This document shows, piece by piece, positions 723 through 44,220 of a stretch of DNA of 64,000 nucleotides. The notes beneath the pieces were generated by a model. That model did no database searches. It was given only the letters and a program-made list of their open reading frames with translations, and was not told where the DNA came from. Source of the DNA: Candidatus Aminicenantes bacterium. Its GTDB lineage: Bacteria; Acidobacteriota; Aminicenantia; Aminicenantales; JAFGBC01. Position 1 is the first letter of the stretch, and each line of letters opens with the position of its first letter. The position numbers and the translations under genes are program-made. The stretch lies in assembly GCA_963702005.1 (NCBI GenBank), contig OY969696.1, positions 832,001 through 896,000 of the forward strand. Reading direction: 5' to 3'.

Positions 723-1781
723 ATGCCGTTTGCGGATATTCCGGGGAACCGGAGAGTCAAGGACTTGATCCGGATGGCCTTGGCCAAGAACCGGCTTCCC
801 AACTCCCTTCTTTTCTGCGGACCCCAAGGCGTCGGGAAGCGGACGGCGGCCGTGACGCTGGCTCAGGCCCTCAACTGTCTCCGGATGGGCGATGACGCCT
901 GCGGCGAGTGCGACCCCTGCAAGGCCATAATGTACGGCCATGACATTCCTGGAAAGGCGGGGATCTATCCGGATGTCATGGAGATAGACCTCAATGAGAG
1001 CAAGAGCAAACTCGGGATCGATCAGATCCGAGAGCTCAAGCACATCGCCTATCTCAGGCCGATGGCCGAGAAGAAGAAAAGGGTTTTTATCGTCGATGAC
1101 GCGGACCTCATGAGCGAGCCGGCCGCCAACTCGATCCTCAAGGTCCTCGAGGAGCCGCCCCTCTTCAGCCATATCATCCTGGTCACTTCCCATCCCGAGA
1201 TTCTTCTTCCGACCATCGTCTCGCGCTGCCGGGTCTTGAATTTTCTCCCCGTTTCGATCGACGAGATCGAGCGGGCGCTCCTCGACAAGGGACTGCCTCC
1301 GGAGCGGTCCCGAACCCTCGCCCTGCTGGCCCGGGGGAATCTCGAAATGGCCTTGACTCTGGATTGGGACGAAGTCCTGGCCGGGCGCGAGCTGGCCTGG
1401 CGGGAGTTCCTGTCGCTCGTGGCGGACCGGGAGGCATCGTCTCTCCTCCGGCTTTGGGCCTTCGGGCCGCGCAAGGCCATCGAGGACGACCTCGTCCGGA
1501 CCATGGAGTTTTTCGCCTCTTTCTTTCGGGACGCCCTCTACCTTGCGGAGGGAGGGCAACCCGAAGGGCTTCTGAACCCGGACGTCCCGGAGCGGGTCGC
1601 GGAGGCGGCCCGTTTCTTGAGCGTGCCCGAGGCCCTCCACGGCTTGGCCCTCGTCGATGCCGTCCTCCAGGCATTGGACAAGAACATGAACGTCAGCCTG
1701 GTCATGACCGATTTTGTCAGCCGCTATACTGGAAGGAACCATGTCAGAGATCATCTGTCTGCTGTCGCAGCGCACCGGTAA
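723..1781 (+). CDS. holB: DNA polymerase III subunit delta'
   Basis: LLFCGPQGVGK, C...CGECDPC zinc motif, AANSILKVLEEPP and LLPTIVSRC motifs. Confidence 0.9.
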   Translation: MPFADIPGNRRVKDLIRMALAKNRLPNSLLFCGPQGVGKRTAAVTLAQALNCLRMGDDACGECDPCKAIMYGHDIPGKAGIYPDVMEIDLNESKSKLGIDQIRELKHIAYLRPMAEKKKRVFIVDDADLMSEPAANSILKVLEEPPLFSHIILVTSHPEILLPTIVSRCRVLNFLPVSIDEIERALLDKGLPPERSRTLALLARGNLEMALTLDWDEVLAGRELAWREFLSLVADREASSLLRLWAFGPRKAIEDDLVRTMEFFASFFRDALYLAEGGQPEGLLNPDVPERVAEAARFLSVPEALHGLALVDAVLQALDKNMNVSLVMTDFVSRYTGRNHVRDHLSAVAAHR

Positions 1782-2421
1782 AATGGTGCGCGCCAAGAAG
1801 GGCGAGGAAGACGCCCAGATGGGAGACGTCTGCCTCATCGAGTCCGACTGGGGCGGGGACTTGGCCGTCGTCACGGCCGTGACCGGCATCCTCTGCGAGC
1901 GAGCCCAGTCCGTCAAGGACGCCGTCCGGATCGTCCGCAAAGCGACCGAAGAGGACCTGCGGAAATTCGACTGGCTGTCCGACAAGGAGGCGCGGGCCTA
2001 CGCCTTCTGCCTGGAGCGGATCAAGTCCCGCGGCCTGCCCATGAAGCTCGTCTCCGTCCGCTATTTCTTCAACGAGAAAAAAGGGATTTTCTACTATACG
2101 GCCGACGGCCGGATCGATTTCCGCCAGCTCGTCAAGGACCTGGCCAAGGAGCTGCGGATGAGGATCGAGATGCGCCAGGTTGGCGTCCGCGACGAGGCCA
2201 AGATGGTCGGCGGGCTGGGCGTCTGCGGAAGGGGCCTGTGCTGCTTCAGCTTCATGAAGGCCTTCGAGCCGGTCACGATCCAGAAGGCCCGCAAGCAGCA
2301 GATCGTCATCAACCCGACCAAGATCTCGGGGTTGTGCGGTCGTCTGATGTGCTGCCTGGGGTTTGAAGAGGGAAGCCGGGGCCGATTATATTCCGAGGAA
2401 GATAAGGTCACGGAGGATTAA
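1741..2421 (+). CDS. PSP1 C-terminal domain / RicT (YaaT)-like protein
   Basis: YTADGRIDFRQLVKDLA, RIEMRQVGVRDEAK, GVCGRGLCC, KISGLCGRLMCCL. Lies downstream of holB. Start moved to ATG 1741, which has an RBS (GGAAGGA). Confidence 0.9.
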   Translation: MSEIICLLSQRTGKMVRAKKGEEDAQMGDVCLIESDWGGDLAVVTAVTGILCERAQSVKDAVRIVRKATEEDLRKFDWLSDKEARAYAFCLERIKSRGLPMKLVSVRYFFNEKKGIFYYTADGRIDFRQLVKDLAKELRMRIEMRQVGVRDEAKMVGGLGVCGRGLCCFSFMKAFEPVTIQKARKQQIVINPTKISGLCGRLMCCLGFEEGSRGRLYSEEDKVTED

Positions 2422-2500
2422 ATCCTCCGCGATCGAGCCTTTGTCCTCGGCTTCTGCGGGCTCGGCCCCGGCTTAACCTTGAGAAAGGAGGGGTAGCGAG

Positions 2501-3129
2501 CTAACGGGCCGGTTTGACCCTGAACCGGATCCGATCCGATACGGCCGTCAAACCTCCCTGAGCTGAGAAAGCCTTGACCTGCCAGGAGTACTCTTCCCCG
2601 TCCGCGAGCCGCCGCCGGATGTCTTCCGGCAGCGCGATCGAATTCGTCCGGGTCACCTCCGTCCAGACAACGTCGGACTGGAACAGATAAACCCGGAACT
2701 CGAGGTCCGTCCCGGCCGGCCGCCATTCGAGCGAGGCCGGCGGCTCGGCGAGATCGCCCCGGGGCGAAACGAGCATGATCGTCCCTCCCCGGACTGTTCC
2801 GTCGCCCGTCAGGACGAATTCCGGGGCCGTCCCCTGGAATCGCGGCAGCAGAATCAGAGCGACCGCCATAAGAACGAGGCCGATCGCCGCCGCAGCCAAG
2901 GTCCGGGTGAGAATGCCCAGAGAACTCGCCGAGGCCGTTCCGCTTTGCCGGCTGAAACGAGCGCCGGGCCTCGGGCCTTGACCATCCGGATCAGGATGTC
3001 ACGCTCCCGGAGCTTCTGGAAACAGCTCGCGCAGTTGAAGTAGTGCTCCTCGAATTCCTCTCTTTCGGTCCCTCCCATCCGGTTTAAGAGGTAACCGTCG
3101 ATTTTGTCCTCGAACCGACACTTACTCAT
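2501..3129 (-). CDS. Zinc-finger (zf-HC2) anti-sigma factor with a TM helix and extracytoplasmic domain; frameshifted near 2893
   Basis: HYFNCASC (HxxxCxxC) in ORF 2854-3129; the TM helix and C-terminal domain lie in another frame (2501-2899). One extra G joins them (..PWLAAAIGLVL..). Confidence 0.8.
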
Positions 3130-3682
3130 CGCCAGTCCCTTTCGATACTTTAGTCGCCCGGGAGCCCGAAAAATGGAAAAAATCGTCCTGGAGAAGCTTG
3201 CGGAGGAGTTTGTGGGCGTAGTTGACCCGCTCGCTGACGCGGCGCGGAGTCAGCCCCAGCCGGCGGGCGACCTCTTCGCGGGGCAGCTCCTGGAAATAGT
3301 AGAGATAGAGGACCTCCTTGAACCGGGGCTTGAGCTTGTCGATGGCCCGGGCGAGCAATTCCGCGCTTTCGCCCCGCTCGGCGAGCTCCTCGGGATCGGG
3401 GAGGGGGGCCGGCTCGGGGGCGTGGCGGAGAGGCTTCGTCTTGAGCCGGATGAAGTCGACGATCCGGCGCGAGGCGATCGTATAGATAAAGGTTCCGATT
3501 GAAGACCGGCCCTCGAACTCGCCGCTCCGGACCTTGGCGATGACGTCGGCCATGATCTCGTTGACGACGTCCTCCCAGTCCGGGTTGGCCGGACCGAGCG
3601 CCCGCTTGACCCGGAAGCCGACGATGGGCCGGTAACGGGCGACGATCGCGTCCAGGTCGAGCTCTTCGTCCTTTTGCTTCAT
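3122..3682 (-). CDS. ECF-type sigma-70 family RNA polymerase sigma factor
   Basis: Region 2 (EDVVNEIM..FIYTIASRRIVDFIR) and region 4 HTH (LYYFQELPREEVARRLG); overlaps the anti-sigma gene. Confidence 0.92.
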   Translation of the reverse strand: MKQKDEELDLDAIVARYRPIVGFRVKRALGPANPDWEDVVNEIMADVIAKVRSGEFEGRSSIGTFIYTIASRRIVDFIRLKTKPLRHAPEPAPLPDPEELAERGESAELLARAIDKLKPRFKEVLYLYYFQELPREEVARRLGLTPRRVSERVNYAHKLLRKLLQDDFFHFSGSRATKVSKGTGDE

Positions 3683-39130: not shown

Positions 39131-39511
39131 TCAGTCTGGGCGGAAGACTTCGAGATCCAATTCCTTAATCATCCGGTAATGGCGGTCGTTGGCGGTCAGG
39201 AGGGATTCCCCGTGGACGATGGCCGTCGAGCAGATTAGGGCGTCGGGCAGGGTCAGGCTCTTGCTCAGGAAATGCCGCTCGATGTAGAAGATCGCTTTGG
39301 CCGAGATGTCTTCGCTGATATAGAGAAGCCGGGCGTTCCAGGCCCGGAACGCCTTCCTCAAGTCCTGAAGCTCCCGCTTGTTTCTCATTCCCTGGAGGAG
39401 TTCCGCGTAGGAAACGGCCGAAACGGCCAATGTCCGTCCCCTTTCGATGGCGGCGCGGGCCTTGCGGTTGCCCCGCATGTACCAGATCAGGACGTCGGTA
39501 TCGACGATCAT
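39131..39511 (-). CDS. vapC: VapC-family PIN-domain toxin
   Basis: IVDTDVLI, ELLQG, PDALI, TAND acidic positions; ATGA overlap with the antitoxin gene. Confidence 0.9.
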   Translation of the reverse strand: MIVDTDVLIWYMRGNRKARAAIERGRTLAVSAVSYAELLQGMRNKRELQDLRKAFRAWNARLLYISEDISAKAIFYIERHFLSKSLTLPDALICSTAIVHGESLLTANDRHYRMIKELDLEVFRPD

Positions 39512-39750
39512 TCGAAGCGGCCTTTCCTGATCTTGCGAACGTACCCGTTGACGTCGGCGACGGCGGGATTGTCCTTCCACATCCCGAAAAGCCCGAGCTC
39601 CGCAGGAGCCGAGGGCGTTTCCCGCTCTTTGAAGGGAATGATTTTCGCCCTGGGCTGGCCCCGGAAGGTAATCACGACCTCTTCCCCCCGGGAGACGGCA
39701 TCCAGAATTTCCTTGGAGTGAAACCTCATGTCTTTGGCTGTCGCGCGCAT
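39508..39750 (-). CDS. Phd/YefM-family antitoxin
   Basis: AKDMRFHSKEILDAVSRGEEVVITFRGQPRAKIIP Phd signature. Confidence 0.9.
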   Translation of the reverse strand: MRATAKDMRFHSKEILDAVSRGEEVVITFRGQPRAKIIPFKERETPSAPAELGLFGMWKDNPAVADVNGYVRKIRKGRFE

Positions 39751-39769
39751 AGTCGCTCGGCTTTCGATA

Positions 39770-39814
39770 ATAGTTGACATTATGAAATGTAAACTATCAA
39801 CAAGCCCTTGTCAA
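39770..39814 (-). promoter_or_regulatory. TA promoter (TTGACA-17-TACATT) with an operator palindrome
   Basis: ATAGTTGACATT-4 nt-AATGTAAACTAT (39770-39797) covers the -10 box. Confidence 0.7.
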
Positions 39815-40135: not shown

Positions 40136-42166
40136 CTATAGTTTTTTCTTCCAGATTCCGGCGCTGTAGGTTCCGGCGAACAGGGTCCGGCTGGCGGCAT
40201 GAAATTCGAGATGGAGGATGTTTTTATCGATCAGCCCTTCGGAGATGTCGGTCCAGGTCAGGCCCCGGTCCTTGCTCTGAAATACGCCGCCGCTTCCCCC
40301 GCTAAAGATCTCGTTCGGGTTGCTTTTGTTGGCGATGATGGAATATGCGCCGTTCGGGCCCGAGCACTTGGTCCATGTTTGGCCGCCGTCCGCGCTCCGA
40401 TAAATTCCATCCCATGAGGTTCCGGCGTAGACGATGTTCGAGTTTCCCGGATCGACGGCGATGGACTTGATGTCCCTGTAGGTCCAGGGGAGCCGCGTCC
40501 AGGACGCGCCGCCGTTCGTGCTCTTGTAGATAGCCCCGACATTGTAGTCGGAGGTGTAGCCTCCCGCGAAAATAACGCTGGAGTTCGAGGGGTCGAAGGC
40601 CGCGGTGTTGATGGTGTAGGCCGTCTCGTTGGCGATTTTGGCCTGGGTCCAGGTATCACCCCCGTTCGAGGTGAGATACAGCCCGATATAATTCGGGTCG
40701 CTAGACGTGTTGTAAATCCACCCCGAGACCGCGATCCGGCTGGGATTCCGGGGGTCCCCGGCGATTCCGGTGACGTTCTTGTGGAGGATGTTCGTTTTCG
40801 TCTGGGCTCCGTCTACAGACCTGTAGACGTCGTCCTCGCCTCAACCCCCGGCCAGGAAAAAGACCGTCTTTGGGTTCGAAGGATGGACGACAAAACCCAG
40901 AATACTCTCACAGCGGTAAAAATCAGGGCACTTGGTCCAAGCCCCGCCGCCGTTCGCGGTCTTGAACAGGGCGTAGTTCGCGACCTCGGTGTAGATCGTC
41001 TGAGCGGAGGAGGGCGCGACTCCGAAGGAATCAGGCCTGGAGGCCCTGATCCCTGTGTGGCTCGCTTTCCAGAGGATCCCTGCGTTCTGGCTCTTGAAGA
41101 TCCCGGCCCAGGTGCCGCCGATGATCGTGTTGCCGTTCACCAGGAGCCGGGTGCCGTATCCGTAGATCCCGTTTCCGTAATGTGTCCAGGTCTTCCCGCC
41201 GTCCACGCTCTTCCAGCAGCCCCGATCGTTCTCCTCGTTGCCGCTGCCCAGGCCATAGAGCGTGCCGGGCTTGGCCTTATCCACTGCGAGGGCGCTCACG
41301 TTCAAGTAAAATGGTGAGGCTTGGTTCTGCCACGAGCCCCCTCCGTTCGTCGTCCTCGCGACTCCATTACTGTAAGCGACGAAGACGGAGTTCGGGTCTA
41401 TCGGATGGAGGACCAGTCCGTCGGCTCTGGGATTGATGACAGTGCCGGGATTGAAAACAGCGTCCTTGGTGATGTTCTTGTAGCTGCCGCCGCCGTTCGT
41501 GGATTTAAAAATCCCGACCTTCCCTTTGCCCGCTTTAGTATAGTTCCCGCAGAGGTAGATGATATTCGGATTCTTGGGATGGATTCCGATGTCGAGGATG
41601 TCGCCGTACTGGGCCGTCGGCTCGAGCTTGACGATCGTCCAGGTTTGGCCGCCGTTCGCGGACTTGGCGACGGCCGGGCAATAGGCCCACGTCGAAAAAT
41701 TTGTGACGAAATGTCCCGTGATGAAAAAAATCTTCGAGTTCGAGGGATGGATCGCCATGCGGCCGCTGTAGGCCTGAAAACCGAACGGGCAGGCGATGCT
41801 GTCGGGAAAAGTGACGCCCCGGTCCGAGGACTTGAGAATGGCATAGCTCGAGTAAGCGAAGACGACGTTGGCGTTTTTCGGGTCCGTCACTATATCATTG
41901 ATGCTGTTTTGGAGGATAAGGGTCCGCGTCCAGGTCAAACCGTTGTTCGAGGACTTGAAGAATTGAGAGGGATAGACGGCAGCGGAGGCGTAGATCTCGC
42001 TGGGATATTTTGGGTTCCGGGCCAGCCCTCGGACTTCTCCCCCGTAGGGGCCGATGGCCGTCCAGGCGGAGGCGCCGCCGGGCGCCCTGTCAGCCGGCGT
42101 CTCCCGCCCGCCGAAAAGCAGGGCGCAACACAGGACGATGATAGCGACGAGGACAATCCTCTTCAT
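40136..42166 (-). CDS. Secreted Asp-box/BNR (VPS10-like) beta-propeller protein, 676 aa, with in-frame TGA (candidate selenocysteine 442)
   Basis: RBS GGAGGAGG and a signal peptide; K/R-S-x-N/D-G-G-x-T/S-W repeats both before and after TGA 40841-40843; the frame stays open to TAG 40136-40138; SECIS-like hairpin follows the TGA. Confidence 0.85.
40805..40843 (-). promoter_or_regulatory. Bacterial SECIS-like element
   Basis: UGA-GGCGAGGACGA-CGUCUACAGGUCUGUAGACG-GAGCC: hairpin 11 nt after UGA with the apical CAGGUCUG found in E. coli fdhF. Confidence 0.8.
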
Positions 42167-42373
42167 GGCCCTCCTCCCAGGCGGCTTTGAGGCAAATCCC
42201 TTTAGCCAAATAATAGCGCCACAGGCCACGTGCGTCAATCTTAGAGAACTGGATTCACGCGCAAGGTGGAATTCCGGGGACACGATACCGAATTAAGAAA
42301 TTCGATTCATGTCCCCGGAATTCCGGGCCGGTCTTGATTTCGCCGCCGCCTTGCGGATAATATGGTCGGGAAC

Positions 42374-43222
42374 ATGATCAAGGTCATCGTCAACGCCGAC
42401 GATTTCGGCTTCTGCCCGAGCGTCAACGAGGGCATCGTCCTCGCCCACCGCGAGGGGATCCTGACCAGCGCGACCTTGATGGCCAACGCCCCCGGCTTCG
42501 ACCAGGCCGTCGCCCTCTCCCGCGAGAACCCGAACCTGGGCATCGGCGTCCACCTCAACATCGTTCGGGGACGGCCCCTGTCGGACCCCGCCCGGATCTC
42601 GAGCGCGGTCGCCCCGGACGGCCGTTTTTGGGGGAGCGTCTACAAGATCATCCGCAAGCACTATGCGCGCTCCATCCGCCTCGCCGACGTCGAAACGGAA
42701 TGGCGGGCCCAGATTGAGAAGGCCCTGAGGGCCGGGATCGCCGTGACCCATCTCGACAGCGAAAAGCACATGCACACCTTCCCGCCCTACTTCAGGATCG
42801 CGCTCAAGCTCGCCGGCGACTTCAACATCCGGGCCGTCCGCTTCATCAACGAGCGCTGCCTATCCCTCTCGCCGGCCCAAAACGTCAAGTCCTTCTTCAT
42901 CGCGGCCTGCTGCCGTTCGATGCGTAAGACGATTCGCAATCATGGTATAATGACCGTCGACCGCTTCTACGGCGTGTGCCATAGCGGCCGGATGACGGCC
43001 CCCCGGATCCGGAGGATCCTGGAGCGGGCCGGGGAGGGCTGCAGCGAGATCATGGTCCACCCCGGCCGCCTGACGGAGGAGCTCGTGTCTCTGGAGAAGG
43101 AGTTCGGGTCTTATTACATCAACAACCTCCGGGAGGTCGAGTTGGGGGCCCTGCTCGACCCGGACCTCAAGCGCGTCGTCCGCGAGCGCGGGGTCCGGCT
43201 GATCTCCTACGGCGGGATGTGA
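42374..43222 (+). CDS. YdjC/ChbG/HpnK-family carbohydrate deacetylase
   Basis: IVNADDFG, GVHLN, THLDSEKHMH, EIMVHPG. Confidence 0.92.
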   Translation: MIKVIVNADDFGFCPSVNEGIVLAHREGILTSATLMANAPGFDQAVALSRENPNLGIGVHLNIVRGRPLSDPARISSAVAPDGRFWGSVYKIIRKHYARSIRLADVETEWRAQIEKALRAGIAVTHLDSEKHMHTFPPYFRIALKLAGDFNIRAVRFINERCLSLSPAQNVKSFFIAACCRSMRKTIRNHGIMTVDRFYGVCHSGRMTAPRIRRILERAGEGCSEIMVHPGRLTEELVSLEKEFGSYYINNLREVELGALLDPDLKRVVRERGVRLISYGGM

Positions 43223-44220
43223 GAATGAACAGAGTCCGAAACGCCATCGACCTTTCCATCGTCGTCCCCTTCTTCAACGAGGAGGCGAGCATCCCCGAGC
43301 TCTACCGGCGGCTGGCCGACGTCCTCCGCAAGACGCGGCTCCGCTACGAGCTTATCTTCGTCGACGACGGCAGCCGCGACCGGACGCCCCAGGTTCTGGA
43401 CGGCATTTTCCGCAAGGACAAGGCCGTCCACGTCATCCGCCTCAAGAAAAACTTCGGCCAGACGGCGGGGCTGGCGGCCGGGTTCGATTTCGCCCAGGGC
43501 GAGACGATCATCTCTATGGACGGCGACCTCCAGCACGCGCCCGAGGACATTCCCCTCTTCCTGGAGAAGATGAAGGAAGGCTACGACATCGTCAGCGGCT
43601 GGCGCAAGCGCCGGGTCGACAACTTCATCCTGCGCCGGCTTCCCTCGCTTGTCGCCAACCGGATGATGAAGAAGCTCTCGGGCGTCGACATCCACGACTT
43701 CGGGACGACCTTCAAGGCCTACAAGAAGGAGGCCATCAAGAGCGTCGATCTCTACGGAGAGCTCCACCGCTTCATCCCCGCCCTGATCAGCCGGACCGGC
43801 GTCAAGATCGTCGAAATTCCGATCAAGAACATCGTCCGTCCCAAGGGGAAGTCCAAGTACGGGCTGTCCCGGGTCCGGCGGGTCTTCTTCGACTTGATGA
43901 CGGTCAAGTTCCTGATCTCTTTCCTGGATCGGCCCCTTCAGTTTTTCGGCCTGATCGGGCTCATCCTGGGGGGGCTGGGATTTCTGATCGCCCTTCTCCT
44001 GACCCTCGGTTTCTACCTGCTGGGCTGGTCCATCCGGGAGAACATGGGGAATCTCGTCCTGGCCGTGTTCCTGATGATCCTGGGCGTCCAGTTTGTCATG
44101 ACCGGGCTCCTGGCCGAGATGATCTCCCGCATCTACTTCACGACCCATAAAATCAAAATCTATACCCTGGAAAGGGTCCAGACCCACCGGAAAGACGACC
44201 GTGCGGCCCATTCCCGATAA
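43219..44220 (+). CDS. GT2 ArnC-like undecaprenyl-phosphate glycosyltransferase
   Basis: VVPFFNEE, VDDGSRD, NFGQTAG, MDGDLQH, LYGELHRFIP; two C-terminal TM helices. Confidence 0.92.
   Translation: MRMNRVRNAIDLSIVVPFFNEEASIPELYRRLADVLRKTRLRYELIFVDDGSRDRTPQVLDGIFRKDKAVHVIRLKKNFGQTAGLAAGFDFAQGETIISMDGDLQHAPEDIPLFLEKMKEGYDIVSGWRKRRVDNFILRRLPSLVANRMMKKLSGVDIHDFGTTFKAYKKEAIKSVDLYGELHRFIPALISRTGVKIVEIPIKNIVRPKGKSKYGLSRVRRVFFDLMTVKFLISFLDRPLQFFGLIGLILGGLGFLIALLLTLGFYLLGWSIRENMGNLVLAVFLMILGVQFVMTGLLAEMISRIYFTTHKIKIYTLERVQTHRKDDRAAHSR

Follow-up and report, generated by a model that had tools for sequence, protein, structure and literature searches.

We analysed a window of 64,000 nucleotides (nt), bases 832001–896000 of a single 4.31-Mb contig that represents a Candidatus Aminicenantes genome (94% complete, 60.4% GC). 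On the reverse strand of this window lies a gene for a putatively exported protein made of Asp-box repeats, whose frame is interrupted by a single TGA codon with a hairpin immediately downstream. On comparative sequence grounds, we conclude that this TGA (40841–40843) is very probably a selenocysteine (Sec) codon, and we treat the hairpin as a candidate selenocysteine insertion sequence (SECIS). The features of the gene are listed below in window coordinates, from its 5′ to its 3′ end after the entry for the whole gene.

40136..42166, (−): whole gene, 676 codons plus the TAG stop (40136–40138), encoding a GH74-like tandem Asp-box propeller, presumably exported
42169..42178, (−): purine-rich stretch GGGAGGAGG just 5′ of the ATG, a possible Shine–Dalgarno-like sequence
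42166–42164, (−): start codon ATG, followed by 441 codons up to the TGA
42113..42163, (−): N-terminal hydrophobic helix, residues 2–18, a predicted signal peptide or membrane anchor
40910..40912, (−): Cys419 (in FYRC), a candidate partner of the Sec residue; its proximity would follow from the strand register
40841..40843, (−): in-frame TGA, read here as Sec442; the frame reads ...VFFLAGG before this codon
40139..40840, (−): 234 sense codons after the TGA, encoding the remaining blades of the C-terminal propeller
40810..40829, (−): candidate SECIS hairpin CGUCUACA-GGUC-UGUAGACG, a perfect stem of 8 base pairs (bp) with the apical loop GGUC at 40818–40821
40808..40828, (−): Asp-box VYRSVDG, residues 447–453, encoded by the hairpin itself

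The preliminary description of this DNA had proposed a frame of 676 residues at 40136–42166 (−) with a TGA at codon 442, and this is how the sequence reads. It had also pointed out that the 234 codons after the TGA contain no ATG; this is the case, and no separate open reading frame (ORF) of at least 60 residues is listed in that frame. A 158-nt contig from run X3 spans 40839–40996 with zero differences, the TGA being at the very end of the contig; this check used assembled contigs from four DNA runs only and its cover is thin. A loose end in run X1 corresponds to another paralogue type carrying its own TGA. Searched against Rfam, the window gave no match at the gathering score and the surroundings of the hairpin gave none at E-values up to 10, and a tRNA search of the window found no tRNA gene.

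Both the gene callers and the ORF list end this gene at the TGA, and the product itself is stored in the public protein collections as a protein of 441 residues (P0002). Taken at face value, the TGA would be a nonsense mutation or a real stop, the product would have 441 residues and the 234 codons that follow would be a decaying remnant. We consider this highly improbable in view of the rest of the family. A read-through search of the genome returned many paralogues, each with exactly one TGA. The 18-nt core of the hairpin (three mismatches at most) occurs at 15 sense-strand sites in the genome, 14 of which are preceded, at 12 or 15 nt, by an in-frame TGA, the fifteenth being a degenerate copy in a TGA-less gene fragment. 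Twelve of the 14 TGA–hairpin genes are intact and two carry a frameshift elsewhere in the gene; to this extent some copies may be decaying or mis-assembled, as a nonsense mutation would have it. In an alignment of 21 paralogues, the column on which the preliminary description had hung its reading holds U (Sec) at one position in all 12 intact TGA-bearing members, one U being displaced by a gap, and the entries of the nine TGA-less paralogues at this point are S, P, E, E, S, C, Q, I or a gap. Independent mutations cannot explain the same column in 12 intact paralogues and in other genomes.

Three loci of this family deserve a separate mention. The two frameshifted copies, at 756153–758184 (−) and 3454954–3456883 (+) of the contig, could reflect gene decay or faulty assembly; in the second, the stem is compensated (GUCUUCA/UGAAGAC), as it is in its orthologue in the same-genus genome G001. 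The TGA-less propeller fragment at 4061292–4062185 (−) holds a version of the hairpin with three mismatches and a broken stem; this version encodes VFRSVN and has the look of a SECIS relic that outlasted the loss of Sec.

The part downstream of the TGA evolves like the part upstream of it. The ratio of nonsynonymous to synonymous substitution rates (dN/dS) relative to four orthologues is 0.20–0.28 downstream (222 codons) and 0.21–0.28 upstream (441 codons in three orthologues and 221 in the fourth, which meets a contig end; a fifth, cut after 24 codons, was left out). Purifying selection acts alike on both sides of the TGA. These equal ratios speak against a stop codon followed by a decaying remnant, as do the Asp-box residues that are kept downstream and the second propeller, which needs the downstream part.

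We examined 60 relatives belonging to this order and confirmed full-length TGA forms at five loci of G001 and in G040, a member of another family. At one of the loci, L026 (G040:C127, match 1501–3516), the Sec propeller lies in an open frame of 1006 codons and may carry extra domains compared with the 676-residue protein of the window. A match in G016 with two TGAs was tried as a Sec form and rejected: its TGAs lie off the Sec column and its copies have sense codons there. Seven of the nine metagenome loci have the TGA together with a perfect hairpin; of the other two, one is partial and one (L146) is a Cys form. In L146 a TGC stands at the Sec column, and the hairpin, with UGCGGAC as its 3′ arm, has lost pairing (−4.9 versus −9.6 kcal/mol).

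No full-length Sec form was present among the best 120 matches of a search of 5.8 billion protein clusters. These matches include 19 proteins of 413–479 residues that span about 58–65% of the query, and all 14 of the short proteins that were aligned stop exactly before the Sec column. Among the best 150 matches of an exhaustive search of representatives at 50% identity, the short single-stretch matches, 15 out of 15, again stop at this column. Since the aligned short relatives all end at the Sec codon, we attribute their length to truncation by gene callers. About a third of each truncated protein is thus missing from databases, and the selenoproteomes of Aminicenantes-like sediment bacteria are undercounted.

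The preliminary description had further raised the question of whether homologues have Cys at this column. Cys does occur, in six of 19 full-length homologues (P0003, P0004, P0006, P0007, P0009 and P0025), the others having Glu (two), Asp (one), a different residue or a gap. It is also found in five of 32 full-length representatives at 50% identity (P0126, P0133, P0155 and P0161 among them) and in one of the genome's own paralogues (2125121). In a quick maximum-likelihood tree (37 sequences), seven changes are required to account for the U label, and sense-codon forms are nested among U forms; with midpoint rooting, a sister group of five rows at the root lacks U. The sense-codon forms look like repeated losses of Sec rather than the outcome of a nonsense mutation. 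As the SECIS is the same throughout the family, a single origin followed by repeated loss is the simpler reading: judging from this quick tree, Sec looks ancestral and was apparently lost later to Cys, Glu, Ser and other residues.

The perfect hairpin is present at the distance that had been described, 11 nt past the TGA (40829–40810). Isolated, it folds at −9.6 kcal/mol, which none of 200 dinucleotide shuffles equalled, and no U-run is found 3′ of the stem. The GGC/GCC pairing that was said to close it from below exists in the window copy and its close orthologues and is not kept in the paralogues. We assembled 24 distinct TGA–hairpin sequences, which are kin, so that the following counts are of sequences and not of independent events. 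In these, 99.5% of the cells of the stem are standard pairs and two pairs covary (G–C to A–U in four sequences and A–U to U–A in two). Their covariation score was reached by none of 500 shuffles, and pairing falls to 15–55% when the registers are slid by 1–3 columns. The spacing from the UGA to the hairpin is 11–14 nt (12 or 15 nt to the 18-nt core), and the loop on the coding strand is GGUC or GUUC throughout. The bacterial SECIS model, as laid out in section 5 of a 2026 catalogue of prokaryotic selenoproteins (PMC13188914), has a loop of 3–9 nt, a stem of 4–16 bp, a G in the first two loop positions, 16–37 nt between the UGA and the loop, and a minimum free energy of −7.5 kcal/mol or lower. 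The family falls within all of these limits as given there, with a 4-nt loop GGUC (or GUUC), 8 bp, 19 or 22 nt and −9.6 kcal/mol.

The element is also a near-perfect palindrome in DNA that scores on the opposite strand too, and the paralogues that stand in tandem arrays could exchange sequence. One could therefore imagine that it acts in DNA or transcription, as a protein-binding site, a tract of recombination or gene conversion, or an attenuator, its spacing from the TGA being incidental. This seems to us barely credible. The loop on the coding strand is asymmetric in all 24 sequences, the distance from the TGA is fixed within 11–14 nt, the changes in the stem keep RNA pairing (including one G–U pair) and the stem decays in L146, where TGA has become TGC. 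A stem without a following U-run is not an intrinsic terminator, and a conversion tract of 18–20 nt across genera and across proteins that are only about 30–40% identical is implausible.

The hairpin has a second constraint, since it is translated. The codons AGG, TCT and GTA with which it is written had been called atypical for this DNA, and they are indeed rare, amounting to 9.7%, 6.4% and 7.6% of the Arg, Ser and Val codons in 1637 long ORFs of the genome. Of the Asp-boxes in the paralogue family, all 10 that follow the TGA are written with AGG-TCT, compared with one of the 56 others of the form xxRSx[D/N]. The paralogous proteins are 31–41% identical to the window protein (tblastn), yet the nucleotides of the hairpin are almost invariant. 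On the protein side, all 12 Sec forms keep every one of the stem-encoded residues Y448, S450, V451, D452 and G453, and V451 is found in one of the nine TGA-less paralogues. The hairpin RNA codes for the SECIS stem and the Asp-box VYRSVDG alike, with rare codons and residues both fixed: an RNA hairpin that recruits SelB would also encode an Asp-box β-hairpin.

The sel genes had been noted as absent from the window, which is true; they are found in the same genome as one cluster at 765451–770102 of the contig, 62 kb from the window. Its components, in contig coordinates, are as follows.

765451–766824: selA, above the curated cut-off
767020–767940: selD, above the curated cut-off
768099–769995: selB, above the curated cut-off
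770011–770102: tRNA-Sec gene, 73.8 bits versus a cut-off of 47

Six of the 14 TGA–hairpin loci flank this cluster. The SelD protein (766858–768063 (+)) is a Cys-type enzyme (GCASK), with a Cys-rich N-terminal extension of about 45 residues (HCICNPKDPCPCD...CLC) ahead of its Pfam AIRS domain. FdhA and SelD are the usual users of the Sec machinery; no Sec-type FdhA was found in the genome, where the best match reaches 59 bits versus a cut-off of 814 and has no internal stop. Hairpin-based scans of the genome, which pick up only sites with an open frame to either side and at least 6–7 bp of stem and may miss other selenoproteins, gave two more credible Sec sites beyond the propeller family, both in genes of the Thioredoxin_7-TPR type.

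1013349–1015058, (+): Thioredoxin_7-TPR gene 1, Sec site at 1013502, signal-like N-terminus
2162569–2164092, (−): Thioredoxin_7-TPR gene 2, Sec site at 2163945, signal-like N-terminus, paralogue of gene 1

In this pair U stands in a UGSC redox motif and a hairpin with a GGUC apex begins 9–11 nt past the UGA. The two genes are probable selenoproteins, and an ORF model based on table 11 would truncate their annotation. They are unrelated to the propellers and share the hairpin design with them, so that two gene families of this genome use the same element. By these crude scans the propeller family accounts for 14 of the 16 credible Sec sites of the genome. A scan of coding potential for read-through TGAs was abandoned as insensitive, since two of the 14 family sites passed it. 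Of 61 genomes of the order, 27 gave a selA match, and each of the three with TGA forms is one of these 27. No selA was detected in G002 (83% complete), where the propeller copy is without a TGA.

These data bear on a further alternative, in which the TGA is read through without Sec, either because it has been reassigned (to Trp or Gly, as in codes 4 and 25) or because a near-cognate tRNA inserts Trp, Cys or Arg while the hairpin slows termination. The inserted residue is not readable from sequence alone, and hairpins past stop codons can promote read-through in other systems. All the same, we judge this quite unlikely. TGA is an ordinary stop in this genome, ending 37 of the 62 ORFs listed in the sel island described below, which excludes a genome-wide reassignment. 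The Sec machinery that adjoins six of these genes is complete, selA is present in three of three genomes with TGA forms, and the hairpin fits the SECIS model and matches both the element of the UGSC genes and the apex of the fdhF SECIS; moreover, Cys is among the residues of the sense-codon homologues. Sec at position 442 of an exported propeller, as first proposed, is thus supported by the Sec machinery, the conserved TGA, the Cys-bearing homologues and the conserved hairpin. The machinery and the conservation of the hairpin were two of the points on which the preliminary description had said that its reading could fall, and both turned out to be present.

What kind of protein carries this residue? 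Its best Pfam match is to Sortilin-Vps10 (PF15902; 116 bits versus a cut-off of 33, in seven stretches), and BNR repeats are also matched. The PF15902 match is due to the Asp-box repeats, as the predicted fold is 7+7 and not the ten-bladed Vps10 propeller; in Foldseek, sortilin (8t8s) reaches a template modelling (TM) score of only 0.21. The NCBIfam model NF045728 (F510_1955 family glycosylhydrolase) scores 160 bits, below its cut-off of 175, with its best part at residues 478–672, and the three families returned by the NCBIfam search at E-values up to 0.1 include no selenoprotein model. The AlphaFold model, computed from an alignment of 88 rows (pLDDT 94.1, pTM 0.91), predicts a helix at residues 2–18, a low-confidence linker at 19–29 and then 14 blades of Asp-box type, i.e. 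two tandem seven-bladed propellers, the second of which is completed by the post-TGA residues. The helix would serve as a signal or an anchor, from which we infer that the protein is exported; all of the paralogues begin with a similar hydrophobic segment.

In the model, Sec442 is located between strands 435–439 and 445–450, in the Gly-rich loop GG-U-G of the second blade of the C-terminal propeller, and this loop is predicted to lie on the face across from the Asp-boxes, where Asp-box glycosidases have their active sites (PMC2716378). In XccXeg74, G465 at subsite −1 and R510/R513 at subsites +2/+3 are 45–48 residues apart (PMC8245568), which suggests, by analogy, that the second-blade loop lines the cleft. 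A closer coincidence was discarded: stretch 4 of the profile alignment to 6p2n places Sec442 within two residues of the C-terminal catalytic Asp of GH74, but this stretch is likely to be shifted by one blade, because the profile advances by 53 positions versus 16 for the chain between stretches 3 and 4, with about 58 residues of 6p2n left over. Single-sequence searches of the PDB yielded nothing beyond alignments with an ambiguous repeat register, and searches for GH74-type Asp motifs in 121 proteins and in all loci gave nothing to align.

A possible partner for Sec442 is Cys419, which in the model precedes by three residues the strand 422–427; this strand pairs with strand 435–439 leading into the Sec loop. 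Cys419 is found in eight of 12 Sec forms of this genome versus none of nine TGA-less paralogues, in 11 of 14 truncated forms versus three of 19 full-length homologues, and in nine of 15 truncated forms versus seven of 32 full-length representatives. These counts come from related sequences and are a lead, not a test. The surroundings of the sel cluster offer further hints.

756153–782771: selenium island (loci L135 and L136)

A tandem array of four Sec propeller copies immediately precedes selA, and another two are found within 13 kb on the downstream side of the tRNA-Sec gene. Scattered among these copies are genes for three AhpC/TSA-redoxin (TlpA-like) proteins with a WCxPC motif, one fused to DUF6029 and one to CarboxypepD_reg, as well as for a DsbD_N protein, an outer-membrane barrel and a Fer4_5 membrane protein; a PIN gene and a gene for an amine-oxidase-like flavoprotein also belong to the island. 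As far as gene content goes, this context suggests an extracytoplasmic thiol-redox setting.

We propose the following sequence of events. The hairpin 11 nt past the UGA would act as a bacterial SECIS, its loop lying 19 nt after the UGA, and would be bound by SelB carrying Sec-tRNA(Sec); Sec442 would be inserted and the ribosome would go on to complete the 676-residue protein. Sec442 might then be a reactive residue in the cleft between the two propellers. It could be redox-active, forming a selenylsulfide with Cys419 and being recycled by the TlpA-like thiol:disulfide reductases of the island. We offer this redox site, drawn by analogy, as a tentative part of the explanation that could well be wrong. 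With similar reserve, one may speculate that the family is a new class of extracytoplasmic selenoenzymes and the main user of the Sec machinery, in which a GH74-like scaffold without its former aspartates has Sec as the reactive residue of its substrate cleft, and in which the SECIS was exapted from an Asp-box. The last idea comes from the fact that V-Y-R-S-V-D codons can form a perfect hairpin with a GGUC loop.

Several observations weigh against this interpretation, some against decoding as Sec and others against the proposed function. The stem does not have the bulged U of E. coli fdhF, as had been remarked at the outset. None of the public sequencing runs recorded as containing the stretch is of RNA. 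At the Sec column, the remaining 27 of the 32 full-length representatives have S, T, G, N, R, A, K, E, F, Y, P, V or a gap; such a minority of Cys is unusual for a catalytic Sec and suggests that the site is dispensable or changes its role. The propeller protein has no CxxU or UxxC motif. The pairing of Cys419 with Sec is partial, and Cys419 is absent from three of the five Cys-form representatives. Finally, the island is weak evidence, and the link to TlpA-like proteins is seen in one genus only.

If the proposal is right, Sec occurs in an exported, carbohydrate-hydrolase-like double propeller with no recognisable redox motif, and one genome holds 14 such genes. Bacterial selenoproteins known so far are for the most part oxidoreductases with a thioredoxin fold or a metal centre, and the question arises of the role of a selenol on a propeller scaffold outside the cell. 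Recoding by this mechanism is known; the novelty lies in the family, the fold, the copy number and a SECIS that overlaps an Asp-box. The preliminary description knew of no selenoprotein family with this fold, and the propeller is likewise absent from the 119 prokaryotic families in Table 1 of the 2026 catalogue (PMC13188914). That table includes no propeller, BNR, sortilin or GH74 entry, and searches for such terms in the same review and in the deep-Sep paper gave none. In a search of main texts outside subscription journals, we found no literature linking selenocysteine to Asp-box propellers or to Aminicenantes.

Within the window, the propeller gene stands alone between a PIN/Phd toxin–antitoxin pair and a divergent YdjC–GT2 pair. 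The former (39131–39780 (−)), directly downstream of the propeller gene, consists of overlapping ORFs for a PIN toxin and a Phd/YefM-type antitoxin; another PIN gene, at 770135–770539 of the contig, adjoins the tRNA-Sec gene. The latter (42362–44220 (+)) comprises genes for a YdjC-like carbohydrate deacetylase and a family-2 glycosyltransferase. At the metagenome locus L142, ORFs of equal length (286 and 333 residues) lie beside the orthologue, matched by length and place alone.

The SECIS of E. coli fdhF is the closest known counterpart of the hairpin. As the preliminary description had it, the UGA of K-12 fdhF is followed after 11 nt by GGUUGCAGGUCUGCACC, which has the octamer CAGGUCUG in common with the window hairpin. 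Both elements lie within the coding sequence, where they constrain the encoded residues, and both have a GGUC loop. They differ in that the stem in the window is a perfect 8-bp stem with no conserved lower stem, and that the protein is unrelated to the molybdopterin enzymes. For the protein, the nearest relatives in structure are the GH74 xyloglucanases (6p2n, 2cn3 and 5fkq), which are extracytoplasmic, as the window protein is predicted to be, and are also tandem seven-bladed Asp-box propellers (Foldseek TM 0.60–0.66; profile E-value of 4e-68 for 6p2n). Their sequence identity to the window protein is 15–18%, however, and the N-terminal Asp of ARTD-IGG in 6p2n aligns with Ala/Val of IYASAAVY in the window protein. 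We take this Asp to be catalytic because 2cn3, presumably a D70A mutant, has ARAAIGG there. The loop of the C-terminal Asp, placed less certainly by blade count, corresponds to residues 393–396, EVAN (in TEVANYA), with no Asp, and the window protein has its Sec one blade further. The family is GH74-like in its modelled fold but lacks aspartates at the catalytic positions.

Two other groups of selenoproteins come into consideration. The TonB-dependent receptor (FCYXU), the MtrB/PioB-like barrel and SaoX/SaoB, as they appear in PMC13188914, are likewise predicted extracytoplasmic, non-thioredoxin proteins with one Sec; they belong to other folds and families, and the entries there report neither 14 paralogues per genome nor a SECIS that doubles as an Asp-box. 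The UGSC Thioredoxin_7-TPR genes share with the propellers their genome, their SECIS design and their signal-like N-termini, but theirs is a thioredoxin fold with Sec in place of the first Cys of a CxxC redox motif, a motif that the propellers do not have.

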